Positions 32,400 to 51,696 of a DNA stretch of 60,849 nucleotides are shown in pieces. This DNA is from Acidobacteriota bacterium (GTDB lineage Bacteria; Acidobacteriota; Polarisedimenticolia; Gp22-AA2), in contig JBGPLZ010000003.1 in assembly GCA_041486695.1 (NCBI GenBank), positions 1 through 60,849 of the forward strand. Reading direction: 5' to 3'. Below the pieces are notes generated by a model, which had not been told where the DNA came from, searched no databases, and saw only the letters and a program-made list of their open reading frames with translations. Within the stretch, counting starts at the first letter, position 1. Each line of letters begins with the position of its first letter. The translations under genes were made by a program, and so were the position numbers.

Positions 32400-32499
32400 C
32401 CGACGACCGCCGCGACCGTATGATCGGGCGGCGATGGTCCGGCCCGGGAGCCCTCCCGCGCGGATCGGCGTCGGTTTCTGGCTGAACGAGGGCGAAACC

Positions 32500-32967
32500 A
32501 TGCGGAAGTTCGGAATCGATCGGTTCAAGCGATTGCTGCGCTTCGTCCTGCACACCGACGACACGCCGGTGCGGGCGGCGCTCGCCTTCGCGCTCGGTGT
32601 GTTCATCGCCTGGACGCCGATCGTCGGCTTGCATACCCTGGTCGCTCTCGGCCTGGCCTTCCTTCTCGGCCTCAATCGCGTCGCCGTCCTGACCGGCACC
32701 TTCATCAACAACCCCTGGACCTTTCTGCCGATCTACAGTGCCTCGGCCTACCTCGGGTCGCTCCTTATCGGCTCGGACGCGCCGGCGCCGCGCCTCGAGG
32801 GACTGTCGAACTGGAGCGACGTGGGGGACTTTCTCTCTCAGTGCCAGCCCTGGATCGTCCCGCTCACCACCGGAACCCTCATCCTCGGAGCGCTCTGCGC
32901 CCTCCTGTCGTTCCCGCTCGTCCTGTATGGCATCCGTTGGTATCGCGCCCTCCGCCGGGTCGGGTGA
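32500..32967 (+). CDS. DUF2062-family membrane protein
   Basis: Internal start MRKFGID at 32500. TPVRAALAFALGVFIAWTPIVGLHTLVALGLAFLLGLNR..FINNPWTFLPIY. Confidence 0.7.
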   Translation: MRKFGIDRFKRLLRFVLHTDDTPVRAALAFALGVFIAWTPIVGLHTLVALGLAFLLGLNRVAVLTGTFINNPWTFLPIYSASAYLGSLLIGSDAPAPRLEGLSNWSDVGDFLSQCQPWIVPLTTGTLILGALCALLSFPLVLYGIRWYRALRRVG

Positions 32968-33002: not shown

Positions 33003-33608
33003 TTGGCCGTGATCGACGATCCGGATCTGATCCGGCGGGCGGCGGCGGGTGACCGGGAGGCCTTCGATCTCCTCGTGGAGAGGAAGCGCGAAAGGGTCTT
33101 CTGGATCGCCCGCCACGTCGTCGGGGACGCCGAGCTGGCGCGTGATGTGGCGCAGGACGTGTTCCTGAGATTGTTCCGGACGATCGGGCGCTTCCGCGCC
33201 GGCGCCCCCTTCGATCCATGGCTCTATCGGATCACGCTGAACCTGGCGATCGACGCCCGGCGCCGCGAGCGGCCGCACCGCGAGGCCGCGCCGCTCGAGG
33301 CGGCCGGTGGCAGCGCGGCGGGTGGCCTCTCCGCCGGCGACGAGGACCAAGGCGCGCCGGCGGGCGACAGCCTGCGCCGCCGCGAGGTGCGGCGGATCTT
33401 CATCACGCTCTCGTCGCTTCTGGCTCCCCGGCAGCGCTCCGCCTTCATCCTGAGGGAGATCGAGGGCCTCACCACGGGCGAGGTGGCCGCGGTGCTCAAG
33501 ACGACCGAGTCGACGGTGAGAAACCACGTGCTGCAGGCTCGCCGGATCCTCCAGGAGGAGCTTCGCAAGCGCTATCCCGAGTATTGCCGGCCCCGCGCGC
33601 CGCGGTGA
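33003..33608 (+). CDS. ECF (sigma-24 type) RNA polymerase sigma factor
   Basis: Region 2: DVAQDVFLRLFR..FDPWLYRITLNLAIDARRR. Region 4: RQRSAFILREIEGLTTGEVAAVLKTTESTVRNHVLQARRIL. Confidence 0.9.
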   Translation: MAVIDDPDLIRRAAAGDREAFDLLVERKRERVFWIARHVVGDAELARDVAQDVFLRLFRTIGRFRAGAPFDPWLYRITLNLAIDARRRERPHREAAPLEAAGGSAAGGLSAGDEDQGAPAGDSLRRREVRRIFITLSSLLAPRQRSAFILREIEGLTTGEVAAVLKTTESTVRNHVLQARRILQEELRKRYPEYCRPRAPR

Positions 33609-33676
33609 ACGCGACCCATGTGAATACTCGGGCAGGACACTAGACGCTTCAGGGCTTCGCCGCGTAGATCACGCTG

Positions 33677-34228
33677 ATGAGCGATGATCCGGACGGCACC
33701 TCGGTGAGCATCGAGTGCGAAGCGGTGCGGCCCCTGCTCGGGGCGCCGTTGGCCGACTTCCGCCTCGACGAGGCGGTGGCGCGGCAGGTGAGAGAGCATC
33801 TGGCGGGCTGCGCCGCGTGCCGGGAGATCCAGGCCGGATTCGATCCGGCGGCGCTCTTCATGGAGCTGCGGGGCGGCGTACTCCCGGAGAGCTTCTGGAC
33901 CGGCTTCGACGCCAGGCTCAAGGCGCGCCTCGAGGAGCCGCGCTTCGCCTGGGCCTCGCTGGTCCGCGCCCCGAGGCTGGTCTACCTGACCGCTCCGCTC
34001 TTGATGATTCTGGCCCTCGGGGCCACGATGTTGGTGCTGCACCCGGGGATGGGCGGCTGGCGCAAGCGGGGTGGGTTCCAGACTCCCTTCGGCGCGCCGG
34101 GCCAGCCCGGCACGCCGATGCTGGAGCAGGTCTCCTCGCCCGGCGCCCGGGTCTATCAATTCCTGGTCGGCGCCCCGGGGGACGAGACGCCGATCTATCT
34201 GGTCGTCGATGAGTCGATCAATATCTAG
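33677..34228 (+). CDS. Membrane-spanning anti-sigma factor (zf-HC2 type)
   Basis: VREHLAGCAACREI (H-x3-C-x2-C), one TM segment LVYLTAPLLMILALGATMLVL. Lies immediately downstream of the ECF sigma gene. Confidence 0.75.
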   Translation: MSDDPDGTSVSIECEAVRPLLGAPLADFRLDEAVARQVREHLAGCAACREIQAGFDPAALFMELRGGVLPESFWTGFDARLKARLEEPRFAWASLVRAPRLVYLTAPLLMILALGATMLVLHPGMGGWRKRGGFQTPFGAPGQPGTPMLEQVSSPGARVYQFLVGAPGDETPIYLVVDESINI

Positions 34229-34237
34229 GAACCGGAG

Positions 34238-35014
34238 GTGACGACCGTGCCACGCTGCAGACTCTGGCTTGCCGCCTTGCTGGTCGTGGCCGCCGCGCTC
34301 CTGCCGGTTCCCGACCGGGCCATGGCGGCGCCCCAGACCGGCGCCGAGGCGGGGCCGGGGGCGGCCCCCGCCCCCGAATCGCCCGGAGCGGGGCTGGCGA
34401 CCCAGGTCTTCACCATTCGCTATCGGAACCTGGACGACATCTACCTGCTCGTCAGCCCGGCCCTCGGGCCGCGCGGATCGATCCGCGCCCAGCCCCACCA
34501 GAAGACGATCACCGTCGTCGACGTCCCGGAACGGCTGCAGAGCATCGCCGCGCTGATCGCCGGCACCGATCTCCCCATGCGCGGCGTCGAGGTCTCGGTG
34601 CAGCTGATCCTGGCCTCGATCGGCCCGTCGTCGGCGGCGGCGCCTCCGCCCACCATCCGAGGGGTCATCGAGAAGCTGAACGCCCTGAGCACCCGCTGGA
34701 ACGATTACCGGATGGTCGGCAACGCCCGCATCCTCGGCACCGAAGGGGAGCGCAGCAGCCTGCGCATCGGCGAGGACTACCGGGTGGATTTCCGCATCGA
34801 CCAGGTGTCGCCGGAGAGCCGGATGATCCGGTTCAAGCCTTTCGCCCTGCAGCGCCGCGAGCTGTCGGTCGAGGGGAACGAGCGCTACAGCCCGGTCATG
34901 GACACGGTGCTCAACCTGCGCGACGCCCAGCTGTTCATCGTCGGCGCCTCCAAGATGGAGAAGAGCAACCGCGCCCTGTTCATGACCATCACGGCCTCCC
35001 TGCAGCAGCCCTGA
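34238..35014 (+). CDS. Exported protein with one secretin-N (N1/NolW-like) module and a short secretin-core-like beta-rich C-terminus ('mini-secretin-like')
   Basis: Signal peptide LWLAALLVVAAALLPVPDRAMA/AP. VFTIRYRNLDDIYLLVSP..IRAQPHQKTITVVDVPERLQSIAALIAGTDLP fits the secretin-N pattern. An alternative GTG start at 34247 has better spacing from GGAGG. Confidence 0.5.
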   Translation: MTTVPRCRLWLAALLVVAAALLPVPDRAMAAPQTGAEAGPGAAPAPESPGAGLATQVFTIRYRNLDDIYLLVSPALGPRGSIRAQPHQKTITVVDVPERLQSIAALIAGTDLPMRGVEVSVQLILASIGPSSAAAPPPTIRGVIEKLNALSTRWNDYRMVGNARILGTEGERSSLRIGEDYRVDFRIDQVSPESRMIRFKPFALQRRELSVEGNERYSPVMDTVLNLRDAQLFIVGASKMEKSNRALFMTITASLQQP

Positions 35015-35043
35015 CGGGCGGCCGGGCATTCCAAGGAGTTGTC

Positions 35044-36258
35044 ATGCCGGAGTTCATCGCCAAGATCGGCACCAGCGACGGGACGGTGATGGAGCGCGCC
35101 TTCACCGCCGATTCCGAGCAGGCCCTGATCGTCGATCTGAAGGCGCGCGACTATCACATCTTCGGCATCCGGAAGAAGAGCGGGCTGCTGGGGTTGCTGC
35201 CGGGGCGTGGCGCCGGACGCGGCGTGTCGATGAAGGAGTTCCTGGTCTTCAACCAGGAGCTGGCGGCGCTCATCCGCGCGGGCCTGCCGATCCTGGCCGG
35301 GCTCGACATCCTGATCGAGCGGCGCAAGAATCAGATCTTCAAGAAAGCGCTGACCGACGTGCGCGATCGGGTCCGGGGCGGCGAGGCGCTGTCGGAGGCT
35401 TTCGAGGCGCAGGGCGGCATGTTCCCGAAGATCTACTCGTCGACCCTGGCTTCCGGAGAGCGCTCCGGCGAAGTGGCGTCGGTGCTGCAGCGGTACATCA
35501 CCTATCAGAAGACCATGATGGGCCTGCAGCGCAAGATCCTCTCCGCCCTGATCTATCCGGCGTTTCTCTTCCTGATGTCGTTCGGGATCGTCATCGTCCT
35601 GATCACCTATGTCATCCCCAAGTTCAAGGAGTTCTATGCCGACTTCGGCGCCGACCTGCCGCTGATCACCAAGGTACTGGTCGGCGCGTCGGAGTTCTTC
35701 ACGACGTACCTCCTTGCCGTCCTCCTGGCGATTGTCGTCGCCGTCCTGGGGGTGCGAGCCTGGGCCCGCACCGCGGCGGGGCGGCTGGCGATCGACCGGT
35801 TCAAGATCCGGGTGCCGCTGATCGGCGCCATCTGGCAGCGCTTCGCGGTCTCCCGCTTCCTCCGGACCCTGGGGACCCTGACCGCCGGGGGAATCCCCGC
35901 GGTCACCGCGCTCGGCATCTCGGCCCGCGCCGTCGGCAATCAGGAATTCGAGCGCCAGCTGATCGACGTCGAGCGCAAGGTGCGCGAGGGGAGCAGCCTC
36001 TGGATGTCGCTGGAGGAGACCGGCCTGTTCAGCGACATCGCCATCGAGATGACCAAGGTCGGGGAATCGACGGGGGCGCTGCAGGAGATGCTGGCGCACG
36101 CCGCCGACTTCTACGACGAGGAGATCGAGACGCGCCTCGCCACCATCATCGCCCTGCTCGAGCCGGTGATGCTGATCGGCATGGGGTTCGTCGTCGGCGC
36201 GATGCTCCTGGCGATCTACCTGCCGTTGTTGCGCTCCTACACGCAGTCGAACTTCTAG
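35044..36258 (+). CDS. gspF: GspF/PilC-family platform protein
   Basis: Two T2SSF repeats: LVFNQELAALIRAGLPIL..L and FLRTLGTLTAGGIPAVTAL, plus three TM segments and C-terminal LAIYLPLL. Confidence 0.9.
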   Translation: MPEFIAKIGTSDGTVMERAFTADSEQALIVDLKARDYHIFGIRKKSGLLGLLPGRGAGRGVSMKEFLVFNQELAALIRAGLPILAGLDILIERRKNQIFKKALTDVRDRVRGGEALSEAFEAQGGMFPKIYSSTLASGERSGEVASVLQRYITYQKTMMGLQRKILSALIYPAFLFLMSFGIVIVLITYVIPKFKEFYADFGADLPLITKVLVGASEFFTTYLLAVLLAIVVAVLGVRAWARTAAGRLAIDRFKIRVPLIGAIWQRFAVSRFLRTLGTLTAGGIPAVTALGISARAVGNQEFERQLIDVERKVREGSSLWMSLEETGLFSDIAIEMTKVGESTGALQEMLAHAADFYDEEIETRLATIIALLEPVMLIGMGFVVGAMLLAIYLPLLRSYTQSNF

Positions 36259-36267
36259 AGGATCCCG

Positions 36268-37926
36268 ATGGCTGCCGCGCCGAAGAAAGACAGCCCGACC
36301 CGGCCACCGGCCGTTCCCGACGCGGCGGTGGCCGAGGGCGCGATCGGCAGTGAGGAGCCCCAGGCGCAGCGCATCGCGGCGCGGCTGGGCATCCCGTACG
36401 TCGACCTGGTCGACTTCCCGATCAATCAGGATCTGTTCCGCGCCATCCCGGTCGATCTGATGTTCCGCTACAACTTCGTGCCGGCCAGGGAGGAGAACGG
36501 CCGGCTGGTGGTCGTGCTCTCCGACCCGTCCGACGTCCTGATGGTGGACGAGCTCGAAGTCCTGCTCGGCCGGCCGCTGACCGTCTGCGTCGGGTCCAAG
36601 ACCGCGATCAACGAAGTCTTGAAGAAGTCGGAGTCCAGCCAGCGGGTCCTCGACGCCGCCACCGAGGAGTTCAAGATCCAGGTGGTCCGCGACGACGACG
36701 AGGAGGGCGAGGAGGCGCTGTCGATCGACAAGCTGACCTCGGCCGACTCGCCGATCATCAAGCTGGTTGACTCGACCGTCTTCAACGCCCTGCAGCGCCG
36801 CGCCTCCGACATCCACATCGAGACGCGGGAGCGCGAGGTGGTGATCAAGTACCGCGTCGACGGCGTGCTCTACAACGCCATGGACCCGATCGACAAACGC
36901 TTTCACTCCTCGATCATCTCGCGCATCAAGGTCATGTCCGAGCTCGACATCGCCGAGAAACGGGTGCCGCAGGACGGCCGCTTCAAGCTGAAGATCAAGG
37001 GGCGGACGATCGACTTCCGCGTCTCGATCATGCCCTCGGTGCACGGCGAGGACGCGGTCATCCGCATCCTGGACAAGGAGTCGGTCAACGAGGAGTTCGC
37101 CGAGCTGCGCCTGGACATCCTCGGCTTCACGCCGGAGGATCTCAAGAAGCTGCGCAAGTTCATCCGCGAGCCGTACGGCATGGTGCTGGTCACCGGCCCG
37201 ACCGGCTCCGGAAAGACCACGACCCTCTACGCGGCGCTGTCGGAGATCCGCTCCAACGAAGACAAGATCGTCACCATCGAGGACCCCGTCGAGTACCAGC
37301 TCACGGGGATCACGCAGATCCCGGTGAATGAGAAGAAGGGGCTGACCTTCGCCCGCGGACTGCGATCGATCCTAAGGCACGACCCCGACAAGATCATGGT
37401 CGGAGAGATCCGCGACGAGGAGACGGCGCAGATCGCCATCCAGTCGGCCCTGACCGGCCACCTGGTCTTCACGACGGTGCACGCCAACAACGTCGTCGAC
37501 GTCCTCGGCCGCTTCCTGAACATGAAGGTCGAGCCGTACAACTTCGTCTCGGCCCTTAACTGCGTGGTGGCACAGCGCCTGGTGCGCATCATCTGCCCCA
37601 AGTGCCGCTACGCCGTGCACTACACGGCCGCCCAGCTCCAGGAGTCGGGGATCGACGGCAAGAAGTACGCGGCCCACGTTTTCTACGAGGGGCGCGGCTG
37701 CATCGACTGCAACGGCACCGGTTACATGGGCCGGATGGCCATCGCCGAGATCCTGGACATGAGCGACCGGATCCGGGAGCTGATCCTGGAGCGTAAGTCG
37801 GCCGCCGAGATCAAGCGGGCCGCGCGCGAGGAAGGGATGACCTTCATGCGCGAGGCGGCGGTGCAGCGGGTCCTCGAGGGGAAGACCACGCTGCGCGAGA
37901 TCAACAAGGTGACGTTCGTCGAGTGA
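36268..37926 (+). CDS. gspE: GspE/PilB-family secretion ATPase with an N-terminal T2SSE_N domain
   Basis: Walker A GPTGSGKTTT, Asp box, Walker B IMVGEIRD, His box TGHLVFTTVHAN, tetracysteine CPKC..C..CNGTGY. Confidence 0.95.
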   Translation: MAAAPKKDSPTRPPAVPDAAVAEGAIGSEEPQAQRIAARLGIPYVDLVDFPINQDLFRAIPVDLMFRYNFVPAREENGRLVVVLSDPSDVLMVDELEVLLGRPLTVCVGSKTAINEVLKKSESSQRVLDAATEEFKIQVVRDDDEEGEEALSIDKLTSADSPIIKLVDSTVFNALQRRASDIHIETREREVVIKYRVDGVLYNAMDPIDKRFHSSIISRIKVMSELDIAEKRVPQDGRFKLKIKGRTIDFRVSIMPSVHGEDAVIRILDKESVNEEFAELRLDILGFTPEDLKKLRKFIREPYGMVLVTGPTGSGKTTTLYAALSEIRSNEDKIVTIEDPVEYQLTGITQIPVNEKKGLTFARGLRSILRHDPDKIMVGEIRDEETAQIAIQSALTGHLVFTTVHANNVVDVLGRFLNMKVEPYNFVSALNCVVAQRLVRIICPKCRYAVHYTAAQLQESGIDGKKYAAHVFYEGRGCIDCNGTGYMGRMAIAEILDMSDRIRELILERKSAAEIKRAAREEGMTFMREAAVQRVLEGKTTLREINKVTFVE

Positions 37927-37951
37927 GGGCGTCAACCGCCCGGGAGCGCGC

Positions 37952-38971
37952 GTGGCGTTCGTGGACAAGCTGAAGGATCTGGCGGCGATGATCGAGGGGC
38001 GTGGTCTCGAGCCGCCCCGTCTGCCGTGCTCTCCGGACGTGGCGGTGGAGATCGCCCCGGATCGGATCACCGCCGTCCGTCTCGGCGCCGACCGGAAGAG
38101 CAAGACGATCCAGGTCCGCTCGGTCGCCTCGCGCGACATCCCGGAGGGGGCCATCGAGATCGCGCTCGCCCGCCCGAACATCGTGGCCCCGGAGCCGGTC
38201 GTCTCCGCCCTCGCCGAGGTCCTGGGCGCCGTGGGCGCGGCGGAGCAGAGGCTCTCGGTCCTTCTCCCCGATCATGTGGCGCGCGTGGCGCTTTTGGCGT
38301 TCGCGACCCTGCCGCGCACCCGCCGCGAGCTCATCGAGCTGGTGCGCTTCCGCATGGCCAAGTCGCTGCCGTTCAAGCTCGACGAGGCGGTCATGGACAT
38401 GACGGTCCTCGGCGGGGGCAGCGGCCCCGCGGGCGCCTCGGTGCTGGCGACCTTCATGCACCGCGCGGTGCTCGAGCAGTACGAGAACCTGTTCACCGCC
38501 GCGGGGTACTGGCCGGGCCTGGTCGGGATCTCGACCTTCGAGATCTACAATCTCTTCCGCCACACGCTGGAGGCGCGCCGCCTGCCGGACAAGGACACCC
38601 TGCTTCTCAACGTCACGCCGCACTATCTGTCGCTGCTGATCTTCCGCGGTGACGATCTGATCTTCTACCGCTGCAAGCCGCACCAGACGGGGAGCGAGGA
38701 GCTGGTCAAGGGAGTGCGGCGGGAGATTTACACCTCGCTGGCCTTCTACCAGGAGAAGCTCCTGGGACGGGGCGTCGGCTGCGCGGCGCTGCGCGCCGTC
38801 TCGCTACCTCCCGGACCGCTGCGGGACGGCATCGGCGAGGAGATCGGATGCGCCGTCCTTCTGCTCGACCTGCTCCGGGTGGTGCCGCTCGGCGAGGCGG
38901 TGACGCTGGATGCGGAGGGCGCGTCCCTCGCGGCGCCGGCCGCCGGGGCGATCTTCGGGAGGCGCGCGTGA
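37952..38971 (+). CDS. pilM: PilM-like actin-fold assembly protein
   Basis: Size and position directly upstream of PilN/PilO-like genes. VAVEIAPDRITAVRL.., LPFKLDEAVMDM, NVTPHYLSLLIF. Confidence 0.75.
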   Translation: MAFVDKLKDLAAMIEGRGLEPPRLPCSPDVAVEIAPDRITAVRLGADRKSKTIQVRSVASRDIPEGAIEIALARPNIVAPEPVVSALAEVLGAVGAAEQRLSVLLPDHVARVALLAFATLPRTRRELIELVRFRMAKSLPFKLDEAVMDMTVLGGGSGPAGASVLATFMHRAVLEQYENLFTAAGYWPGLVGISTFEIYNLFRHTLEARRLPDKDTLLLNVTPHYLSLLIFRGDDLIFYRCKPHQTGSEELVKGVRREIYTSLAFYQEKLLGRGVGCAALRAVSLPPGPLRDGIGEEIGCAVLLLDLLRVVPLGEAVTLDAEGASLAAPAAGAIFGRRA

Positions 38972-40341
38972 AGCCTCTCCCCACCAACCTGGCGAGCCGG
39001 CCGTTTCGCAACAACGCCGTGCTCGGCTCGGTCCTGGGCAGCATCGCGGCGCTCCTCGTGCTGGCGACCGTCTTCAACCTCACCCTCTTCCTGCGCCACG
39101 GCAGCAGCTACGCCGAGATGAATCACGAGCAGGCGAGCGACAGGGAGAGGCTGGCGAAGGTGGACCTGGAGGAGGCGAGGCTGGCCCGGGAGATCCAGAA
39201 GCGCGACTTCCGCCGCCTCCAGGCGCGGGAGCGGATCGCCGGGGAGCTGATTCTGAGGCACGCCTTCTCCTGGACCCTGCTGTTCAACAAGCTGGAGACG
39301 GTGGTGCCGGCCGAGGTGATGATGACCGCCATCCGTCCGAACATCACCGCGGACGCGATCGTCGTCCGGGTCGACGGGGTCGCCAAGAGCTACTTCGCCT
39401 TCCTCGACCTGCAGGACAAGCTGCTGGCGAACCAGGTGTTCGCCCGGATCTCCCCGATCAGCGAGCGCAAGCTCAATCCCAGCCGCCCCGAAATCACCTT
39501 CGCCCTCAATTTCGGCTACCTGCCCAAGGTGGCGGCTCCGGCCGCGTTGCTCGCGGCGGGTGCCGCGCCGGGCGCGGCCGCAGGCAGTACCTCCCCGGCA
39601 TCCCCGGGTGCGGCCGCAGGCGCTCCTTCCCCGGCATCCCCGGGCAGGGCCGCGGGCACTCCGACCCCGCGTGTGGCGGCCCCGGCTCCCGTGCCGGCCT
39701 CGGCGCCGGCGCTCGGGATCGTCGGGCGTGACGGACAGTTGCGCACCGCGACCGCCCTGTCCCGGATGTTCGCGGCTCCGGGGTCGATCTATCTGCCGCC
39801 CGGCGCTCGCCCTTCCGCCCCGGCGGCACCCAAGCAGGCCGGTCCGAAGCCCCAAAAGCCGCGGGCGGCCCCCGCCGGAACTCCGCCCGCCGCGACGGCC
39901 GCTCCGCAGCCCTCGGCGCGGCTCCTCCAGGTGCCGGTGCGTGGTGAGCCGGGTCTGCCGCCGGGCCTCCTCCCGGGGGCTTTGCCTCCGAAGGTCAGGA
40001 TGGCGGCCGAGGTCGGGCGGGGCGTCGTCCCGGCCGATCGGCTCGATCTCCCCATGCGGTTCGCCGATCGTCCGGTGGGTGAGATCTACGCTGCGCTCGC
40101 GCAGGCTCACGGGGTTCGTTTCGACCTCGATCCCGGCGTCGATCCCCGGGCCCGCATCTCGGCCAGCCTGTCGGGAAAGACGCTCGCCGATGCGATCGCC
40201 ATCGTGGCGCGCGCCGCGGGCCACCGGGTCCATCGCGAGTCCGACGGCGTCTACAGGGTGGTCCTCCCGGCCGGAGGCGCGGCGATCGCCGACAAGCCGC
40301 TGCAGGAGGAGACTCTGTTCCCGGCGGAAGGGCGGCCATGA
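38968..40341 (+). CDS. PilN-like bitopic protein fused through a long Pro/Ala-rich linker to a C-terminal STN/secretin-N0-like domain
   Basis: GTGA overlap with the pilM stop. NLASRPFRNN + TM VLGSVLGSIAALLVLATVF + coiled coil (PilN pattern). Linker of about 130 aa. C-terminus LDLPMRFADRPVGEIYAALAQAHGVRFDLDPGV..ISASLSGKTLADAIAIVARAAG. Confidence 0.65.
   Translation: MKPLPTNLASRPFRNNAVLGSVLGSIAALLVLATVFNLTLFLRHGSSYAEMNHEQASDRERLAKVDLEEARLAREIQKRDFRRLQARERIAGELILRHAFSWTLLFNKLETVVPAEVMMTAIRPNITADAIVVRVDGVAKSYFAFLDLQDKLLANQVFARISPISERKLNPSRPEITFALNFGYLPKVAAPAALLAAGAAPGAAAGSTSPASPGAAAGAPSPASPGRAAGTPTPRVAAPAPVPASAPALGIVGRDGQLRTATALSRMFAAPGSIYLPPGARPSAPAAPKQAGPKPQKPRAAPAGTPPAATAAPQPSARLLQVPVRGEPGLPPGLLPGALPPKVRMAAEVGRGVVPADRLDLPMRFADRPVGEIYAALAQAHGVRFDLDPGVDPRARISASLSGKTLADAIAIVARAAGHRVHRESDGVYRVVLPAGGAAIADKPLQEETLFPAEGRP
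39574..39645 (+). repeat. Tandem 36-bp (12-aa) coding repeat in the PilN-like linker
   Basis: GCGGCCGCAGGCAGTACCTCCCCGGCATCCCCGGGT followed by GCGGCCGCAGGCGCTCCTTCCCCGGCATCCCCGGGC (AAAGSTSPASPG / AAAGAPSPASPG). A third, degenerate unit follows. Confidence 0.85.
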
Positions 40342-40961
40342 GCGCCCGGACGCTTCGTCCGCGTTTCGACCTGCGCCAGGATCTCTGGAAGGCCGTCGCG
40401 GTCTTCGGGCTGCTCGCGCTGGTCAATCTGGGCTTTTATCTGTTCCTCAACCTGCCGCGACTGCGGGCCTTCGGCGCCCTGCGGGACAGGCGCGACGACG
40501 TCCGGCGGACGCTGATCGCGGCCAAGAATCGCTGCGACACGATGCTCGACCTGGTGACGCGGTACGATGAGGACATGGTGAGGCTCGACGACTTCTTCAG
40601 CAACCGGATCGGCACCCAGGCCGAGCGGATGACGAGCATCCAGAAGGAGATTCGGGCGATCGCCGGCGAGTTTCACATCGACCCGGAGTCGATCGACTTC
40701 AACCTCACCGAGGTCGAGAGCAGCGACCTGACGCAGTTCCAGATCACCATCCCGTTGCTCGGCGGCTATCCGAACCTGAGGCAGTTCCTCAACCGGATCG
40801 AGGCGGCCGAGCACATCTTCATCGTCGACAGCGTCGAGCTGGCCGGGTCGCGCGAGGGCGGGGTGATGCTGAGCCTGACGATCAAGATTTCGACCTATTT
40901 CAGCACCCCGGAGCGTGAATCCGGGCACGGCCGGGCGAAGCCCGTGCCCCAGGGAGCCTGA
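40338..40961 (+). CDS. pilO: PilO/GspM-like bitopic assembly protein
   Basis: ATGA overlap. TM AVAVFGLLALVNLGFYLFL, coiled coil, C-terminal ferredoxin-like part FQITIPLLGGYPNLRQFLNRIE..IFIVDSVEL. Confidence 0.7.
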   Translation: MSARTLRPRFDLRQDLWKAVAVFGLLALVNLGFYLFLNLPRLRAFGALRDRRDDVRRTLIAAKNRCDTMLDLVTRYDEDMVRLDDFFSNRIGTQAERMTSIQKEIRAIAGEFHIDPESIDFNLTEVESSDLTQFQITIPLLGGYPNLRQFLNRIEAAEHIFIVDSVELAGSREGGVMLSLTIKISTYFSTPERESGHGRAKPVPQGA

Positions 40962-40962
40962 G

Positions 40963-41628
40963 GTGGCCGCGCCGCTCAAGAAACGCGGCAAGGAGATCGT
41001 GCTGGGCGTGCTGCTCGTCGCCATCGTGGCGACCGTCTGGCGCCAGTTCGGATCGGATTCGCCCGCGCCGTCGCCGGCCGCGGGCGTCCGGCGGGCCGGC
41101 CCCGGCGGCAGAGGGGGGGCCGATCTGGCGGCGCTGAAGATCGTTCCCGTCGACTGGACGGCGCTCAACGCCGCGCGCCCGACTTACGTCGTGGGCCGCA
41201 ACATCTTTCAATTCGGCTCGATCCCGGCGCCGACGCCGCCTCCCCTGACCGAAGCGGAGAAGCAGGCGATCGAGGCGGCCCGCGCGGCGGCGCAGAAGGC
41301 GCAGGAGGAAGCCGCCCGCCTGGCGGCGGGCCAAGCGGCGCAGCAGGCGGTGGAGATGCAGGCGCAGCAGCAGGCGATCGCGAGCCTGCCGCCGCCCAAG
41401 CCGCAGCCGCCTCCGATCGCCTACAAGTTCATCGGCTACATCGGGCCGCCGGAGCAGAAGATCGCCGTCCTGCATGACGGCACCGACATGATCTTCGTGC
41501 ACCGGGGGGACGTGCTGGCGAAGCAGTTCAAGGTTCTGGAAATCGGCTACGAATCGATTAAATTCGGCTACACCGATCCGCAATTCAAGGGAGAATCCCA
41601 GACGCTCCCGATGAGCAGTTCTTACTGA
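40963..41628 (+). CDS. PilP/GspC-like inner-membrane-anchored periplasmic protein
   Basis: GTG at 40963 after GGGAG. TM IVLGVLLVAIVATVW, Ala/Gln-rich coiled linker, C-terminal beta-domain YKFIGYIGPPEQKIAVLHDG..VHRGDVLAKQFKVLEIGYESIKF. Confidence 0.55.
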   Translation: MAAPLKKRGKEIVLGVLLVAIVATVWRQFGSDSPAPSPAAGVRRAGPGGRGGADLAALKIVPVDWTALNAARPTYVVGRNIFQFGSIPAPTPPPLTEAEKQAIEAARAAAQKAQEEAARLAAGQAAQQAVEMQAQQQAIASLPPPKPQPPPIAYKFIGYIGPPEQKIAVLHDGTDMIFVHRGDVLAKQFKVLEIGYESIKFGYTDPQFKGESQTLPMSSSY

Positions 41629-41645
41629 AGGGGGGTGAGGCGACG

Positions 41646-44039
41646 ATGGCGTGGACGGAGCGAGCCAAGATCGGACCCGGCGGGGCGCGGGCGAGGCAGG
41701 CGGCGGTGGTCGTCGTCTCACTGCTGCTGCTCTCCTGCGCCACCTCCAGCTCCTACCGGCACGGCACCAGGCAGATGAATGCGGGGGAGTACGACAGCGC
41801 CGTGGTGAATTTCTCCCGCGCCCTGACCGGGCAACCCGAAAGCACCCGGATCAAGTCGGCGCTGGTGCGCGCCAGGATGAAGGCCGCCGAGGACCATTTC
41901 ATGAAGGGGCAGGCCTATGCCAGGGCCGGCGACCTCGAGTCGTCCATCAGCGAGTACCAGCAGACGGTCTACCTCAACCCGTCGCACCAGTACGCGGCCA
42001 ACGAGCTGCAGAAGGCCCTGGCCGAGTGGCAGAAGCGCCAGAAACAGGATATGTCCGACATCGAGAAGCTCAAGAAGAAGGTGAAGGCCGAGCCGGGGCG
42101 GGTGGCGCCGCGCCTCAATCCCGCCTCCAACATCCCGATCGTCCTGCGCTTCAAGGACGAGACGATCCGCAAGATCTATGATGCGCTGTCGAAGGCCTCC
42201 GGCATCAATTTCATCTATGACGACCGGGTCGACCTCAACAAGAAGATCTCGATCGATCTGGCCGACGTGACCTTCGAGCGCGCCCTCGACACGCTGATGG
42301 CCATGAACAAGCATTTCTTCAAGATCTGGGACGACAACACGATCCTGATCGCCGACGACAACGCGCAGAAGCACAAGGAGCTCGACGACCTGGTCATCCA
42401 GACCTTTTACCTGAGCAACGCCGACGTCAAGGACGTGCAGGTCCTGCTGCGGACGCTCCTCGATGCCCGGCAGCTGGCGCAGAACGACCGCCTCAACTCG
42501 ATCACGATCCGCGATACCCCCGAAAGGGTGCAGGTCGCCGCCAAGATCATCGATGCGAACGATAAGGCGAAGTCCGAGCTCGTGGTCGACGTCGAGCTGC
42601 TCGAGATCAACCGCAACATGCTGCAGAACCTCGGCATCGACCTGAGCGGCGCCAGCGGCGGCAACGGCAAGCAGATCGGCATCAACTATGGCGGCACCGG
42701 CGGCGTGCCGCTCAACAACCTGGGCATCTTGAAGCAGGCGGGCTCCTGGCTCCTGGGCCCGGTGCCCGGCGTGGTGGTCAATTTCCTGAAGACCAACGCC
42801 GACGCGCAGGTGATCGCCAAGCCCCAAGTGAGAGTCAGCGAGGGGGCCAAGGCGACGGTGCGGATCGGCGATCGGATCCCGATCCCGACCACCACCTTCA
42901 ACGCCGCTCCGACCGTGGGAGGGACGGTGGGCGTGCCGATCACCTCGTTCACCTACCAGAACGTCGGCATCAACATCGATATCGAGCCCCGCGTCCACCA
43001 CAACAAGGAGATCACCCTCAAGCTGCACGTCGAGGTGTCGTCGCTGGCGGGGCAGGTGTCGGCGGGCGGGGGGCTGACCCAGCCGATCATCGGCACCCGC
43101 GAGATCGACTCGACCATCCGTCTCAAGGATAACGAGACGAACCTGCTCGCCGGCCTGATCCGGTCGGAAGAGCGCAGGTCGTTGAGCGGCGTGCCGGGCC
43201 TGTCGGACATCCCCGTGCTGCGGCGCCTGTTCGGCACCACGGAGACGACGGTGCAGTCGACCGACATCGTCCTGACGCTCACGCCGCACATCCTGCGCGT
43301 GCCCGACATCACCGAGGAGGATCTCCGGCCGCTCTGGGTCGGAACGGAGCAGGACATCGGCCTCAAGGGTGCGAGCAAGCAAAGCGCCTTCGGACCATCG
43401 CCGTTCGAGGCGGAGGAGGAGCCGGTGGCGCAGGAGCCGACGGCCCCGGTCGTCGAGGAGGCGGCCCCGGGCTCCACGATCTTCGGGGCCGACACAGCCA
43501 CGCCCGAGCCGACCCCGACGCCCGCCCCGAGCCCGACCCCGAAGCCGCCGCCGAACGTGGGCGGCTCCGGGCCGGCGGCGGCTTCGACGCCCGCGAAGTC
43601 GCCGAGCAGCGAGCCGGCCGGCCCCGCGGTGGTCTCGATCAAACCGTCCAATCCGACCGTCCCGCTCGGGGAGGACTTCACCGTCAGCGTCGAGATCAAC
43701 GGTGCCAGAGGAGTCGGCAGCGTGCCGTTCCACCTCGGTTTCGATCCGACGGCGATCGAGTTCGCCAATTTCACCAATACGTCGCCGTTCCTGGGGAGTG
43801 ACGGGTCGGGGGTCTTCATCCTGGCGACGGTCGGCAGCGGCGGCCGGGAGGTGATCGTGGGCCTGTCGCGCCAGGGGAGCCGTCCCGGGATCGACGGCCA
43901 GGGGTCATTGATCCAGCTGACCTTCCGTCCGAAGCGGCCGGGGACGACGACCTTGAACTTCACCGATCTCTCGGTCCTCGACCCGCAGGCGCAGATCCTG
44001 CCGTCGCAGAACCTGGGAGCGACGATCGTGATCCAGTAG
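41646..44039 (+). CDS. gspD: Secretin (GspD/PilQ family) with lipoprotein-type signal, TPR-like N-terminus, N0+N1 modules, secretin core, and a Pro-rich linker to a C-terminal cohesin-like domain
   Basis: VVSLLLLSC (lipobox-like). N0: IVLRFKDETIRKIYDALSKASGINFIY. N1: VIQTFYLSNADVKDVQVLLRTLL. Core: AKPQVRVSEGAKATVRIGDRIPIP..GINIDIEPRVH..LLAGLIRSEE..VPGLSDIPVLRRLFG. C-terminus: VVSIKPSNPTVPLGEDFTVSVEINGARGVGSVPFHLGFDP. Confidence 0.85.
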   Translation: MAWTERAKIGPGGARARQAAVVVVSLLLLSCATSSSYRHGTRQMNAGEYDSAVVNFSRALTGQPESTRIKSALVRARMKAAEDHFMKGQAYARAGDLESSISEYQQTVYLNPSHQYAANELQKALAEWQKRQKQDMSDIEKLKKKVKAEPGRVAPRLNPASNIPIVLRFKDETIRKIYDALSKASGINFIYDDRVDLNKKISIDLADVTFERALDTLMAMNKHFFKIWDDNTILIADDNAQKHKELDDLVIQTFYLSNADVKDVQVLLRTLLDARQLAQNDRLNSITIRDTPERVQVAAKIIDANDKAKSELVVDVELLEINRNMLQNLGIDLSGASGGNGKQIGINYGGTGGVPLNNLGILKQAGSWLLGPVPGVVVNFLKTNADAQVIAKPQVRVSEGAKATVRIGDRIPIPTTTFNAAPTVGGTVGVPITSFTYQNVGINIDIEPRVHHNKEITLKLHVEVSSLAGQVSAGGGLTQPIIGTREIDSTIRLKDNETNLLAGLIRSEERRSLSGVPGLSDIPVLRRLFGTTETTVQSTDIVLTLTPHILRVPDITEEDLRPLWVGTEQDIGLKGASKQSAFGPSPFEAEEEPVAQEPTAPVVEEAAPGSTIFGADTATPEPTPTPAPSPTPKPPPNVGGSGPAAASTPAKSPSSEPAGPAVVSIKPSNPTVPLGEDFTVSVEINGARGVGSVPFHLGFDPTAIEFANFTNTSPFLGSDGSGVFILATVGSGGREVIVGLSRQGSRPGIDGQGSLIQLTFRPKRPGTTTLNFTDLSVLDPQAQILPSQNLGATIVIQ

Positions 44040-44515
44040 TGACGGCGAGGCGCGCGGACCGGGGCTGGCGCGGCATGACGCTCATCGAGCTTCTGGTCGT
44101 CGTGGCGGTTCTGCTGGTCCTCACGGCGGTGGTGGTGCCGACGGTGAAGTTCGCGGTCAAAAGGCAGAAGGAGCTCGAGCTGCGGCGCGCGCTGCGGGTG
44201 GTCCGCAAGGGGATCGACGACTACAAGAAGCTGTGCGACGCCGGAGTGATCCAGAAGACCGGCGTCGACTCCGAGTGCTACCCGGAGGAGCTCGAGGTGC
44301 TGGTGAAAGGGGTCGACAAGACCGGCGCCCTGGGGCAGAAGGTGAAATTCCTGAGAAAGATCCCGCTCGACCCGATGACCAACGGCTACGAGTGGGGGAC
44401 CCGCTCATACCAGGACGAGGCGGATTCCGATTCGTGGGGCCGGCAGAACGTCTACGACATCTATACCACCGCCGGGGGAAAGGCCCTCGACGGCACGAAA
44501 TACAAGGATTGGTGA
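44039..44515 (+). CDS. gspG: GspG-like major pseudopilin (prepilin-type N-terminus)
   Basis: Leader MTARRADRGWRG / MTLIELLVVVAVLLVL. C-terminal pattern IPLDPM..YDIYTTAGGKALDGTKYKDW. Confidence 0.85.
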   Translation: MTARRADRGWRGMTLIELLVVVAVLLVLTAVVVPTVKFAVKRQKELELRRALRVVRKGIDDYKKLCDAGVIQKTGVDSECYPEELEVLVKGVDKTGALGQKVKFLRKIPLDPMTNGYEWGTRSYQDEADSDSWGRQNVYDIYTTAGGKALDGTKYKDW

Positions 44516-45099
44516 TGGCTAGTGTCCTGAGTCGGAAATCCCTTGCCCATTTCGACGGCCCTCGACGGCCCCGGCTTCGTTGGGCCTCCTCGGAATGGGT
44601 CCACCATGCCTGCGTCGGCCCGCCTCGCCGGGCCCGCCGATGGCTCGCCGGACTGGGCAAGGGATTTCCGACTCAGGACACTTGGAGACGGCGCGGACGG
44701 GACCAGGCGGCACGGCGCGACGGCGGTTTCACGCTGATCGAGTTGTTGATCGTCATCACCATCATCGGCATCATCGCCGCCATCGCCGTCGGGCAATATC
44801 AGAAGACGCCGCTCAAGGCCAAGGAGGCGGTCCTCAAGGAGGATCTCTTCGTTTTGCGCGACGTCATCGACCAGTACTTCGCCGACAAGGGGAAGTATCC
44901 CGAAAGCCTGCAGGCGCTGGCCGACGACGGTTACATGCGGAAGATCCCGGTCGACCCGTTCACGGGATCCGATTCGACCTGGGAGACGGTGCAGGCGGAG
45001 GCCTCGGACGACGATAAGGATAGCGGCGGCGGGGTCATCGACGTCCACAGCGGCGCGACCGGGGCCGCGCTCGACGGGAGCCGCTACAGCGATTGGTGA
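44515..45099 (+). CDS. gspG: Second GspG-like pseudopilin; its leader-coding region carries the in-frame 162-bp element E2, so start and functionality are uncertain
   Basis: Mature part GFTLIELLIVITIIGIIAAIAV..IPVDPFTG..ALDGSRYSDW. The only in-frame ATG/GTG/TTG upstream of G/FTLIELL is the ATG at 44515, giving a 70-aa leader. Confidence 0.7.
   Translation: MASVLSRKSLAHFDGPRRPRLRWASSEWVHHACVGPPRRARRWLAGLGKGFPTQDTWRRRGRDQAARRDGGFTLIELLIVITIIGIIAAIAVGQYQKTPLKAKEAVLKEDLFVLRDVIDQYFADKGKYPESLQALADDGYMRKIPVDPFTGSDSTWETVQAEASDDDKDSGGGVIDVHSGATGAALDGSRYSDW
44521..44682. repeat. 162-bp palindromic element E2: perfect 29-bp terminal inverted repeats around a 104-nt GC-rich core, inserted in frame in a pseudopilin leader
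   Basis: 44521-44549 AGTGTCCTGAGTCGGAAATCCCTTGCCCA is the exact reverse complement of 44654-44682. The length is 54 codons with no stop in the pilin frame. Confidence 0.9.
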
Positions 45100-45204
45100 G
45101 CGAGGGTCGACCGAAGGGAGTCAGTGGAATGACACGGCCGTCCGGCAACAAGTTGTGGTGGCGCCCGTCGGCCGGGGGTATATTCAAAGGATAGGAGACA
45201 AGCA

Positions 45205-46020
45205 ATGCGCAGGCGCTGGACCGCGACAGTCTTGATTCTGGGCGTCGGCATGATCGCCCTGACCATCCTGCAGTGTCAGACGGGAGATCGGATCCCGCCG
45301 AAGGGGTCGACGATCGTCGTCTCCGGCAACCCGACGACGATTCCCCTGGGGAACAGCCCGGCCTGCACGAGCATTTTGCAAGTTTCTAGTTGCGGGACTT
45401 CCGAGATCACCGCGGCCGTCAGCAGCGATCTAGGGGTCCCCCTCCCCGATCAGGATGTCCGTTTCAGCTCGACCGCCGGGAAGTTGTTCATCGGTTCGCT
45501 GAGCGCGCCGATCCCGATCGGCAACGTCCCGGTTCAGACCGACAGCGCAGGGAACGCCCGGGTGAATCTGGTGACCTCGACGACCAGCACCGTGACCGCC
45601 CGTTCGGGGCTCGCTTCGGGGCCGCTGACGCTTAGCACCGTCCAAGGGAACCTCAGCCTGATCACCCTCAATGCGGACCCCAACGACCCCACCTGCAACG
45701 ACACCACGATCACGAGCTGCGGTCAGAGCGTCTGCCTTGTGGCCACGGCGCAGGATTCCTCCAGCACCGGGATCCAGGGTGTCGCTATCCTGTTCACGCT
45801 GGTGAACAACGTCTCCGGCAGCAATACCTTCCGCGGTCAGTTTGTCCCGAGCCAGAAGACGACCGACGTGAACGGGGAAGCGACAACCCTCTTCACGCCC
45901 GACAGCACCTGCACCGCGCAATGTGGTGGGGGGAAGAGCTGCCAGGGGGAGATCGTCGCGACGACGCAGGGAGGCAGCTTCCCGAGCGCGCCGGTGCAAC
46001 TGCTGATCAACATCCCCTGA
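45205..46020 (+). CDS. Exported Cys-rich protein with two bacterial Ig-like (Big_1-type) domains
   Basis: N-terminal hydrophobic signal VLILGVGMIALTILQC (non-canonical lipobox). Twice the pattern V.F.st.G.l...TDs.G.A.v.l.s (DQDVRFSSTAGKL..TDSAGNARVNLVTS; VAILFTLVN..TDVNGEATTLFTP). Confidence 0.6.
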   Translation: MRRRWTATVLILGVGMIALTILQCQTGDRIPPKGSTIVVSGNPTTIPLGNSPACTSILQVSSCGTSEITAAVSSDLGVPLPDQDVRFSSTAGKLFIGSLSAPIPIGNVPVQTDSAGNARVNLVTSTTSTVTARSGLASGPLTLSTVQGNLSLITLNADPNDPTCNDTTITSCGQSVCLVATAQDSSSTGIQGVAILFTLVNNVSGSNTFRGQFVPSQKTTDVNGEATTLFTPDSTCTAQCGGGKSCQGEIVATTQGGSFPSAPVQLLINIP

Positions 46021-46033
46021 GGGGAGAAAGTCG

Positions 46034-46885
46034 ATGGAGCGTCTGCAGGGCCGCATGCACCACCGACGGAGCGAAGAGGGAGCCCTCCTGATCATCATCA
46101 TGATTGGGGTGGTGGTCGCCTCGATCGGTCTGGCGGCGGCGGTGCAGGCCTGGAGCACGACCTGGCGGCGCGACAACGAAGAGGAGTTGATCTTCCGCGG
46201 CAAGCAGTATGTCAATGCCATCCTCGCCTACCGCAAGGAGCATGGCGGACAGTTTCCTTTGAACCTCGAGGATCTCTACAAGCAGGGTCCGCGGCGGCTC
46301 CGGTACATCCGCAAGCTCTTCAAGGACCCGATCGCCAAGGGTGGGAAGTGGGGGCTGCTCTACCTGGCCCCCGGCGGCCAGCAGGTGTACGACCCGAAGG
46401 CGGCCCAGAAGGCGGCGAAGAAGAACTCCGACTCCGAATGGGGCAGCGATGACGACGGTTCTTCCGGCAGCGGCGTCCCCGGCACGGGAGGCCCGATCCC
46501 GGGCGCGCCGCAGCCGGGCGGCCTGCCGGCGAACATCCAGCCGCCGCCGCTCGGCTCCTCGTCCGGCAATGGCAAGGAGGACGAAGAGCGGGTGAGCGAG
46601 CCGCCGCTCGGCTGGCCGATCGTCGGCGTGATCAGCCGGGCCGCAGGGGCGCAGGCGGACAAGACCTTCGCGACTTACAAGGGGCATGAGAAGGTCGACG
46701 AGTGGCAGTTTAACTCACTCGAGATCGAAGGCCAACAGCCGCAGGTTCCCGGCAACCAGAGGGGTGCGAGGTCGGACGGGTGCGTCGGGCCGGGCTTCGG
46801 CGGTCAATGCGCCGGCGGGATCGGCGGCCCGCGGCCAGGCAGGGGCCCCGGCGGGGGCAACCAGGGAACGGGGCCGGTTCGATAA
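46034..46885 (+). CDS. Pseudopilin-like membrane protein (GspK-like N-terminus lacking Glu+5) with a Gly/Pro-rich C-terminal half
   Basis: RRSEEG/ALLIIIMIGVVVASIGLAAAV followed by RRDNEEELIFRGKQYVNAILAYRKEHGGQFP. Low-complexity tail. Confidence 0.5.
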   Translation: MERLQGRMHHRRSEEGALLIIIMIGVVVASIGLAAAVQAWSTTWRRDNEEELIFRGKQYVNAILAYRKEHGGQFPLNLEDLYKQGPRRLRYIRKLFKDPIAKGGKWGLLYLAPGGQQVYDPKAAQKAAKKNSDSEWGSDDDGSSGSGVPGTGGPIPGAPQPGGLPANIQPPPLGSSSGNGKEDEERVSEPPLGWPIVGVISRAAGAQADKTFATYKGHEKVDEWQFNSLEIEGQQPQVPGNQRGARSDGCVGPGFGGQCAGGIGGPRPGRGPGGGNQGTGPVR

Positions 46886-47040: not shown

Positions 47041-47074
47041 TGAGGGGGGGAGCGATCCTCCCCTCACGTTTTTT
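47041..47074 (+). terminator. Intrinsic terminator/attenuator hairpin between the promoter candidate and ask
   Basis: TGAGGGGGGGA-GCGA-TCCTCCCCTCA (11-bp stem including one G-U pair, GNRA loop) followed by CGTTTTTT (T-run 47069-47074). It lies 44 nt upstream of the ask ATG. Confidence 0.7.
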
Positions 47075-47117
47075 CGGCCGGCCGCGCTCCGGCAGGCTTG
47101 TTTGCGCCGAGGGTTCG

Positions 47118-51687: not shown

Positions 51688-51696
51688 GGCGCGCCC

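Follow-up and report, generated by a model that had tools for sequence, protein, structure and literature searches.

A probable Pul-type ('atypical') type II secretion operon with its own ECF sigma/anti-sigma pair in a Polarisedimenticolia-class acidobacterium

The gene cluster described here is closest to the Pul system of the Geobacteraceae. In the account given by the Pelobacter carbinolicus genome paper (PMC3543383), Pul was termed a type II secretion system (T2SS) of atypical kind by Mehta et al. 2006 and is needed for secretion of the multicopper protein OmpB (citing Mehta 2006). Table S4 of the same paper gives the order of Pul-1 as pulF-pulE-pulM-pulN-pulO-pulP-pulQ-pulG-oxpG-ftsE, pulQ encoding a secretin lipoprotein. 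We analysed a stretch of 60,849 nucleotides with a G+C content of ~70% (Acidobacteriota bacterium, assembly GCA_041486695.1, contig JBGPLZ010000003.1, positions 1 to 60,849; the whole stretch is here denoted the window). At positions 33003-46885 the window carries 14 co-oriented reading frames on the plus strand (Table 1). These genes probably form a Pul-type ('atypical') T2SS operon under its own extracytoplasmic function (ECF) sigma/anti-sigma pair, in an acidobacterium of the Polarisedimenticolia class. The family assignment is solid; new here, and of interest, are the putative sigma/anti-sigma switch and the miniature second secretin at the operon head.

The window order F-E-M-N-O-P-Q-G-G agrees with Table S4 and with two Geobacteraceae loci from our genome scans, L201 and L172 (loci are cited by number where they must be told apart). 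In L201 the genes run ATPase-PilM-PilN-PilO-P-secretin-two pseudopilins-FtsE, matching the published order from pulE onward; the analysed stretch of this locus ends before the pulF position, and pulF lies beyond it. The L201 and window proteins are 67% identical for the ATPase, 43% for pseudopilin 1 and 48% for pseudopilin 2, and the L201 secretin of 861 amino acids combines TPR, STN, Secretin_N, Secretin and Cohesin domains in the same architecture as the window secretin. Gene order, identities and secretin architecture therefore indicate that the core of the window cluster is a member of the known, barely studied Pul family, with which it also shares PilMNOP-type proteins, two GspG-like pseudopilins and the TTVHANN signature of the ATPase. 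The window differs from Pul in carrying an ECF sigma factor, a zf-HC2 anti-sigma factor and a mini-secretin before pulF, as well as a Big_1-like lipoprotein and an STN-like domain on the PilN-like protein. Its third, Glu5-less pseudopilin is encoded in the cluster, whereas the third Pul pseudopilin of Pelobacter, TklG, lies at another locus (PMC3543383 Table S4), and no ftsEX gene adjoins the window cluster. A preliminary description of this DNA had taken the cluster for a hybrid machine, perhaps a poorly described member of the type IV filament superfamily. An idiosyncratic or unknown hybrid is contradicted by the equal order and secretin architecture in Geobacteraceae, NC10, Nitrospira, Betaproteobacteria and other Acidobacteriota. 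The description had also named two findings that would speak against it, an equal gene order in a characterised organism and canonical GspH-L genes inside the block; since the order exists in a characterised organism, yet canonical GspH-L genes were not found, the case against it is half made.

Read from its sequence, the machine is a type IV filament system. The ATPase, the platform protein and the class III signal peptides uphold the superfamily membership proposed in the preliminary description. Every core component scored below the curated equivalog cutoffs of T2SS and of type IVa pili (T4aP), including GspF (332 against 424) and GspD (153 against 351). Classical T2SS share with the window a GspE/GspF-family motor and platform, GspG-like pseudopilins with the motif G/[FM]TLIE (the slash marks the cleavage site), an N0/N1 secretin and, by analogy, likely the secretion of folded proteins. 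They differ from the window in several respects: GspC, L, M, H-I-J-K and S were undetected and PilM/N/O/P-like proteins are found instead, the ATPase falls outside the GspE group, and the secretin carries TPR and cohesin domains. In the block, GspC, GspL and GspK had no Pfam or NCBIfam match, GspH/I/J matches were confined to the shared N-terminal motif, and GspM was represented solely by a weak GspM/PilO-type match. Common to T4aP and the window is the PilM-N-O-P-secretin module, with both the N-terminal motif of PilN and the fold of PilP. The TPR pilotin of T4aP is a separate protein (PilF/Tgl), whereas in the window the TPR is fused to the secretin. In further contrast to T4aP, we found no PilT/PilU retraction ATPase in the block or the window and no PilA-type pilin, the FimU/PilVWX-type minor set and PilY1 were undetected, a single operon holds all the genes, F preceding E, and the ATPase clade is distinct. 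The mixture of PilMNOP-type alignment proteins with GspG-type pseudopilins, already noted in the preliminary description, was borne out by hidden Markov models and, for gene 9, by AlphaFold2 (AF2) and Foldseek. A mannose-sensitive haemagglutinin (MSH) pilus is less likely, because the gene order differs, the MshL score is below the GspD score and Pelobacter lists Msh and Pul as separate systems (PMC3543383); our ATPase tree holds no MshE reference. The open-access literature yielded nothing specific on a PilMNOP-type T2SS.

The genes of the block are tightly coupled. PilM- and PilN-like genes overlap by GTGA at 38968, PilN- and PilO-like genes by ATGA at 40338, the secretin and pseudopilin 1 genes overlap at 44039 and the two pseudopilin genes by TGATG at 44515, as the preliminary description had it. 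The remaining gaps in the block are 9-105 nt; those between the anti-sigma and mini-secretin genes and between the latter and gspF are only 9-29 nt. Each of the 14 reading frames is intact, at a third-position GC of 0.80-0.95.

At the head of the operon, the ECF sigma factor consists of regions 2 and 4 only. The anti-sigma factor has an N-terminal zf-HC2 domain (HxxxCxxC), one transmembrane segment and a periplasmic tail of ~60 amino acids. The HxxxCxxC motif recurs in 22 of 24 related loci, in the open reading frame (ORF) between the ECF gene and gene 3, and most of these ORFs also encode a hydrophobic stretch. The trio of ECF, anti-sigma and mini-secretin genes precedes gspF in more than 25 loci across acidobacterial classes, with protein identities across these loci down to 25-45%, and the loci with this head module form one ATPase subclade (bootstrap 88/100), in which the trio invariably stands before gspF. 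Together with an ECF-type promoter motif, this conservation at the cluster head indicates that the sigma/anti-sigma pair belongs to the machine, a link that the preliminary description had proposed.

The ECF-type motif, just 5' of the anti-sigma gene at 33640, is the sole match in the window, against a chance expectation of 0.07 per 61 kb. Searching the window and 62 related loci (947 kb) for CTAGAC-N17-(C)CGTA gave 20 strict matches, 18 of them either immediately upstream of the ECF gene or in the gap between the ECF and anti-sigma genes. The motif lies in this gap in the window and in the close relative L002, and upstream of the ECF gene in most other lineages, which implies ECF autoregulation in the latter. 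Both the CGTA of the -10 block and the spacing are as in ECF-type promoters, and we infer that the 33640 motif is a promoter. Upstream of the window ECF gene there is no classical ECF motif (AAC-N15-18-CGT). A sigma-70-like promoter matching the consensus at 10 of 12 positions lies upstream of a DUF2062 gene and the ECF gene, and a similar site occurs at the equivalent place in L002; judged from its sequence, this promoter probably supplies basal sigma factor in the window lineage. We considered TTGAC-N16-CGTA at 32397 as a second ECF site and rejected it, as the consensus scan made a sigma-70-type promoter the simpler reading. The DUF2062 gene (32299-32967), encoding a membrane protein, lies between the sigma-70-like promoter (32396) and the ECF gene. 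It occupies this position solely in the window and in its closest relative, L002; elsewhere the ECF-type motif precedes the ECF gene.

The product of gene 3 comprises a signal peptide, an N1/N3-like domain and a seven-stranded beta domain of ~130 amino acids. Secretin_N was its sole Pfam match, the C-domain Secretin (PF00263) remaining undetected. Its family profile matches the PilQ/GspD N1 domain at 3e-11. The AF2 model, with a predicted local distance difference test (pLDDT) score of 83.8, had secretin cores as all of its top 35 Foldseek matches in the PDB (E 9e-9 to 8e-6); these matches include f1 pIV (7ofh, 9e-9), PilQ, GspD and InvG. Alignment of the gene 3 family with the large-secretin family by hhalign ran from N1 through the secretin domain (81.6% probability, E 1e-5). 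As modelled, the gene 3 product goes beyond a Secretin_N protein and is a secretin paralogue in miniature. Pore formation by this protein is uncertain because its beta domain is roughly half the usual secretin size. Its role could bear on secretin assembly or signalling, as it might be a co-pore, an assembly factor or a sensor. No description of a miniature secretin was found in the open-access literature.

There is precedent for ECF control of a secretin-containing machine in ECF32, which is linked to type III secretion system (T3SS) genes; the main text of the ECF reclassification paper (PMC7826278) mentions no other secretion link. Like the window, ECF32/HrpL-T3SS has an ECF sigma factor encoded with, and presumably driving, a secretin-containing export machine; unlike HrpL/ECF32, the window has no two-component or HrpRS-type cascade. 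The trio also recalls FecI-FecR-FecA, in that a sigma factor and a membrane anti-sigma factor stand beside an outer-membrane protein with STN/N-domain modules. It differs from Fec in that the anti-sigma factor is a short zf-HC2 protein, not FecR, and a secretin or mini-secretin would take the place of the TonB-dependent transducer as the outer-membrane partner. One may imagine the trio as a trans-envelope signalling module, in which the mini-secretin, in or under the outer membrane and perhaps jointly with the STN/N0 domains of PilN and the large secretin, would pass a surface or assembly signal on to the anti-sigma factor's periplasmic tail. We offer this as a tentative idea and hold it rather doubtful; if true, the machine would be built only on demand, and the trio would do with a secretin what FecA-FecR-FecI does in cell-surface signalling. 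In the open-access literature we found nothing specific on Acidobacteria with an ECF-T2SS link or an ECF-headed T2SS/T4P-like cluster. The dedicated sigma factor, its anti-sigma factor and the defined promoter motif of this acidobacterial branch make up a testable regulatory circuit for a type IV filament machine.

The large secretin is a lipoprotein with the lipobox LLLLSC (read from the sequence). Its domains follow in the order TPR, STN/N0, N1, secretin, a Pro/Thr-rich linker and a C-terminal cohesin, the last matching at 7.8e-9 when searched as an isolated domain. We found no dockerin-like Ca-loop motif, as expected of a cohesin partner, in any frame of the window. The C-termini of type IV pilus (T4P) secretins are reported to be extracellular (PMC4453517); if the window secretin is oriented likewise, its cohesin could be displayed at the surface.

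Scores of the ATPase against both equivalog models stayed below cutoff (NCBIfam; GspE 554 against 630 bits, PilB 543 against 676 bits). The PilN-like protein continues after a long Pro/Ala linker into a lineage-specific C-terminal domain that is confined to close relatives and matches weakly to STN (E 0.19) and to the FemA signalling domain (E 0.08); we tentatively read it as STN-like. Of the three secretin-N/N0-like modules counted in the preliminary description, the third, at the PilN C-terminus, is thus weakly supported. Gene 9 starts at 40963, instead of 40915 as earlier given, and encodes a transmembrane anchor, a long helix, a Pro-rich linker and a C-terminal beta domain. The protein had no Pfam match and no PDB sequence match, and a family profile against the PDB and Pfam scans of all family members came back empty; profile results were dominated by the low-complexity linkers, and the fold was resolved by structure prediction alone. 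In the AF2 model (pLDDT 82.4) the top 12 Foldseek matches in the PDB are all PilP or GspC/PulC homology-region (HR) domains (probability 0.92-1.0; 3oss_C, TMt 0.81), and the label 'PilP/GspC-like' given in the preliminary description therefore holds, at the level of predicted structure. Most of the other component labels given there were confirmed by Pfam or NCBIfam, with the exception of gene 14.

Both pseudopilins have a canonical class III signal peptide motif (at 44072 and 44725) and, by our own reading of the sequences, the C-terminal GspG-type motif DG...Y.DW. GspG gave the best match of both; they scored 37 and 47 against its cutoff of 89, and 24-41 bits against the PilA_Myxo cutoff of 400. 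A six-frame scan of the window detected G/[FM]TLIE at just these two sites and no further prepilin motifs. As the preliminary description had it, GspH/I/J, GspL and a prepilin peptidase were missing: none was detected by Pfam or NCBIfam in the scanned window ORFs. The description had called gene 14 GspK-like, a label that we dropped because gene 14 gave no T2SSK match; indeed, gene 14 itself had no Pfam or NCBIfam match. It is pseudopilin-like, with G/A across the cleavage site, no Glu5, a GspG-like core and a Gly/Pro-rich tail, and the aligned members of its family have a hydrophobic N-terminus (G[FYA]xL) and share the motif RRDxExELIFRG...DP...WG. Homologues of gene 14 come after the pseudopilins in NC10, Duganella, Massilia and other loci. 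Gene 13 is limited to the non-Thermoanaerobaculia part of the clade, and its homologues at the equivalent position carry canonical lipoboxes; it is a candidate substrate or filament-associated factor.

Table 1. Features of the operon and its control region, in window coordinates
Feature	Position	Strand	Evidence
Sigma-70-like promoter TTGACC-17-TATGAT	32396..32424	+	10/12 consensus matches; upstream of DUF2062 and ECF genes
ECF sigma factor, 201 aa	33003..33608	+	Sigma70_r2 2e-16, Sigma70_r4_2 2e-12; TIGR02937 88 bits vs 42.9
ECF-type promoter-like motif CTAGACGCTTCAGGGCTTCGCCGCGTA	33640..33666	+	-35 'AGAC', 17-nt spacer, -10 'CGTA'; just 5' of anti-sigma gene
Membrane anti-sigma factor	33677..34228	+	zf-HC2 6e-6, 26.7 bits vs cutoff 22.2
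Gene 3, exported mini-secretin, 258 aa	34238..35014	+	Secretin_N 29.2 bits vs cutoff 28.2
Platform protein, GspF/PilC family (PulF-like), inner membrane	35044..36258	+	T2SSF 3e-52, two repeats; TIGR02120 332 bits, below cutoff 424
Assembly ATPase, GspE/PilB family (PulE-like)	36268..37926	+	T2SSE 3e-133; signature TTVHANNVVDV
PilM-like actin-fold cytoplasmic protein (PulM-like)	37952..38971	+	TIGR01175 7e-11; PilM_2 1e-5
PilN-like bitopic protein	38968..40341	+	Weak PilN match 0.006; N-terminal LNLAxRPFRNN motif conserved (alignment)
PilO/GspM-like bitopic protein (PulO-like)	40338..40961	+	T2SSM_b 8e-5, PilO 4e-4, GspM_XpsM 1.5e-5
Gene 9, PilP/GspC-HR-like (PulP-like)	40963..41628	+	AF2 and Foldseek
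Secretin lipoprotein, 797 aa (PulQ-like)	41646..44039	+	Secretin 3e-40, Secretin_N 1e-7, STN 1e-5, TPR_2 3e-5, Cohesin 1.4e-7
Pseudopilin 1 (G/MTLIE; GspG-like, PulG position)	44039..44515	+	N_methyl 2e-4; TIGR01710 GspG 4e-9
Pseudopilin 2 (G/FTLIE; GspG-like, OxpG position)	44515..45099	+	N_methyl 5e-9; GspG 2e-12
Perfect 28-bp inverted repeats, 44522-44549 and 44654-44681	44522..44681	.	Bound most of a ~195-bp in-frame insertion
Gene 13, Cys-rich lipoprotein with Big_1-like Ig domains	45205..46020	+	Big_1 1.5e-6, below cutoff
Gene 14, third pseudopilin-like protein, Glu5-less	46034..46885	+	Family alignment; profile vs type IV pilins 6e-4
Intrinsic terminator, operon end	47041..47076	+	11-bp GC-rich stem then T-run; strong

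The secretin has relatives in 62 genome loci, almost all from metagenome-assembled genomes (MAGs) of Acidobacteriota, including Polarisedimenticolia/gp22 (closest), Thermoanaerobaculia and strain Mor1. The order from the sigma gene to gene 14 is conserved in those loci that are long enough to span it, a recurrence well beyond what chance would give. The nearest ATPase, 96% identical, is labelled Candidatus Polarisedimenticolia, and a protein search with the ATPase returned near-identical Polarisedimenticolia proteins alone, giving no view across phyla. The survey across phyla was made by an exhaustive search of 50%-identity cluster representatives with contig look-ups; for the genome scans, the taxonomic distribution is a sample drawn from the matches listed. 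NC10 and other metagenome contigs carry F-E-M-N-O-P-(TPR secretin)-pseudopilins without the sigma/anti-sigma/gene 3 head, and among the matches listed the order F-E-M-N-O-P-secretin-pseudopilins also occurs in Duganella, Massilia, Lysobacter, Nitrospira and Geobacteraceae. Loci with F before E, from other acidobacterial classes, Duganella, Massilia, Lysobacter, Aquabacterium and Hydrogenophaga, have ATPases at least 45% identical to that of the window, whereas the ATPases of ordinary pilB...pilC loci are 36-45% identical (both among the matches listed).

A neighbor-joining tree of 99 ATPase cores placed all F-E-M-N-O-P-Q loci in one clade (bootstrap 93/100), apart from PilB of M. xanthus and from the Vibrio GspE of PDB 4pht. 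ATPases of this clade have a private His-box signature, TTVHANNxxDV, in place of STLHTNDA. A genome scan with the back-translated signature yielded at least 120 loci, including Geomonas, Geobacter, a Geobacteraceae MAG and Malonomonas. ATPase identity to the window is 60-68% for the Geobacteraceae loci L172, L187 and L201 and 60% for Malonomonas L217, all four of which were picked up through the TTVHANN signature itself. The seemingly 'hybrid' T2SS/T4P layout is thus that of a coherent and widespread family, present in Acidobacteriota, Geobacteraceae, Nitrospira, NC10 and many Betaproteobacteria. It goes unnamed by standard equivalog models, and Geobacter OxpG/OmpB is essentially its one experimental anchor; if the family were recognised, the secretion capacity of abundant soil and sediment bacteria would be better annotated.

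Some of these loci deviate from the common layout. In seven loci from MAGs of Acidobacteriaceae and other Terriglobia (L154, L165, L198, L200, L207, L209 and L210), F-E-M-N-O-P seemingly runs straight into pseudopilin-like or gene-14-like genes. Using tblastn we detected no secretin between these genes in any of the seven; their secretin gene may lie elsewhere or may have diverged beyond detection. L198 and L200 also gave no gene-9 match. In Duganella sp. 1411 (L086) the cluster is flanked on both sides by large pre-pro M4 (thermolysin-family) metalloproteases with MAM-like domains (6176-8722 and 17715-19943), which are plausible substrates. In L063, a metagenome relative, the cluster is followed, from 18365, by a protein of more than 3400 amino acids with RHS-repeat/YD-shell and transglutaminase-core domains, a candidate cargo.

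By analogy with its relatives, the machine is most likely a sigma-controlled protein-secretion machine. Secretion is the best-supported function because of the Geobacter OmpB link, the M4 metalloproteases flanking the Duganella cluster, the GspG-like pseudopilins and the lack of a retraction ATPase in the block. By analogy with T2SS and T4P, the GspE-family ATPase and the GspF platform would be held by a PilM-PilN-PilO-PilP-type alignment complex, which would reach the secretin via its PilP/GspC-HR-like domain. A short pseudopilus polymerised from the two GspG-like pseudopilins, and probably primed or capped by the Glu5-less third one, would push folded periplasmic proteins through the secretin. 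The latter would be self-piloting through the pilotin-like TPR domain fused to its N-terminus, and its C-terminal cohesin may, speculatively, tether a partner protein. As to control, the housekeeping-type promoter would provide basal synthesis of the sigma factor, and the sigma factor would drive the ECF-type promoter at 33640, from which the anti-sigma, mini-secretin and all machine genes would be transcribed as one unit to 47041. The zf-HC2 membrane anti-sigma factor would hold the sigma factor until an envelope signal frees it.

Several observations weigh against this reading. PilMNOP components are typical of pili, and the ATPase, no closer to GspE than to PilB, resembles PilB and EpsE about equally in PDB comparisons. 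The ATPase tree is distance-based, contains no MSH, type IVb pilus or Com references, and holds no Geobacteraceae sequence. The link to Geobacter was drawn from a Geobacteraceae MAG, by gene order, domain architecture, percent identity and an adjacent FtsE gene, and the ECF promoter is called from its motif alone. In addition, a 65-codon hairpin insertion in the pseudopilin 2 leader could impair this pseudopilin, and no Peptidase_A24 was found in the ~45 window ORFs scanned, ~30 of them outside the block. Genes for prepilin peptidases commonly lie elsewhere in the genome.

The PilM/N/O/P-type alignment proteins, with their predicted PilP-like fold, would also suit a machine that assembles a genuine filament on the cell surface, serving adhesion, aggregation, DNA uptake or electron transfer, of T4aP or MSH/Com-like type and lacking a retraction motor. 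An ATPase that scores comparably against PilB and GspE fits such a filament as well, and so do the Ig-like lipoprotein encoded among the pilin genes, as PilY1 is among minor pilins, the cohesin on a secretin of a type whose C-terminus is extracellular in T4P (PMC4453517), and the position of pul genes near DNA-uptake genes (PMC3543383). However, the pilin-like proteins are short and GspG-like and neither reaches the PilA equivalog cutoff, no PilT/PilU gene is present in the block or the window, and the ATPase clade is separate from the sampled T4aP PilB. Moreover, the Geobacter relative is tied to OmpB secretion in the account of PMC3543383, and exoproteases flank the Duganella cluster. We consider a surface filament unlikely, though the likeliest of the alternatives to Pul-type secretion.

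Control by the sigma/anti-sigma pair can be doubted on other grounds. ECF pairs are very common in Acidobacteriota, Pul-type clusters of other phyla work without one, and the window ECF gene lies upstream of the motif, seemingly co-transcribed with the DUF2062 gene from the sigma-70-like promoter; the pair could hence be an envelope-stress or neighbouring regulator beside the cluster, exerting no control over it. A chance neighbour would hardly be expected to show the features described above, namely a trio fixed before GspF in more than 25 loci despite identities down to 25-45%, restriction to one ATPase subclade (88/100), an ECF-type motif conserved exactly at the cluster head and only 9-29 nt between the anti-sigma, mini-secretin and gspF genes, and we regard such a bystander role as improbable. 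Another possibility is that the system is decaying or silenced in the window genome, a mobile hairpin element having landed in the start of pseudopilin 2. Directly after the ATG of this gene we noticed a 195-bp insertion (44516-44710), absent from close relatives, most of which lies between perfect 28-bp inverted repeats; it extends the leader through the insertion to 70 amino acids, compared with 5-6 codons in relatives. The predicted RNA hairpin is very stable (-131 kcal/mol, z = -5.6) and would bury the start region. Yet the insertion preserves the reading frame and brings in no stop codon, none of the 14 genes is disrupted, third-position GC being high in all, and the G/FTLIE cleavage site is kept, so that a processed mature pseudopilin 2 is possible despite the insertion. 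Decay or silencing seems to us quite improbable, the least probable of these alternatives to a sigma-controlled Pul-type T2SS. As for the origin of the insertion, a widespread family of miniature inverted-repeat transposable elements is unsupported, because the 28-bp repeat has no exact copy in the species-representative genomes.

Other parts of the window contain genes of unrelated function. Just 3' of the terminator, positions 47118-53004 hold a threonine-pathway row of aspartate kinase (with ACT domains), aspartate-semialdehyde dehydrogenase, a GHMP kinase, which we take to be homoserine kinase, and a pyridoxal phosphate enzyme, presumably threonine synthase. An aspartate kinase gene likewise comes next downstream in L001, L003, L008 and L013. 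At 4169-5215 there is an insertion sequence remnant, with HTH_32/HTH_21 and rve_3 integrase-core fragments in two adjacent short frames. Positions 5441-22859 carry a tetrahydromethanopterin-linked one-carbon gene block, here in an acidobacterium. Its members include Fae (9950-10471) and an Mpt_N dehydrogenase (10434-11378) and, on the minus strand, Ftr (20319-21239) and an Fhc-like amidohydrolase (21240-22859). To judge from their Pfam names, ATP-grasp and pterin-binding genes of this block may serve cofactor synthesis.

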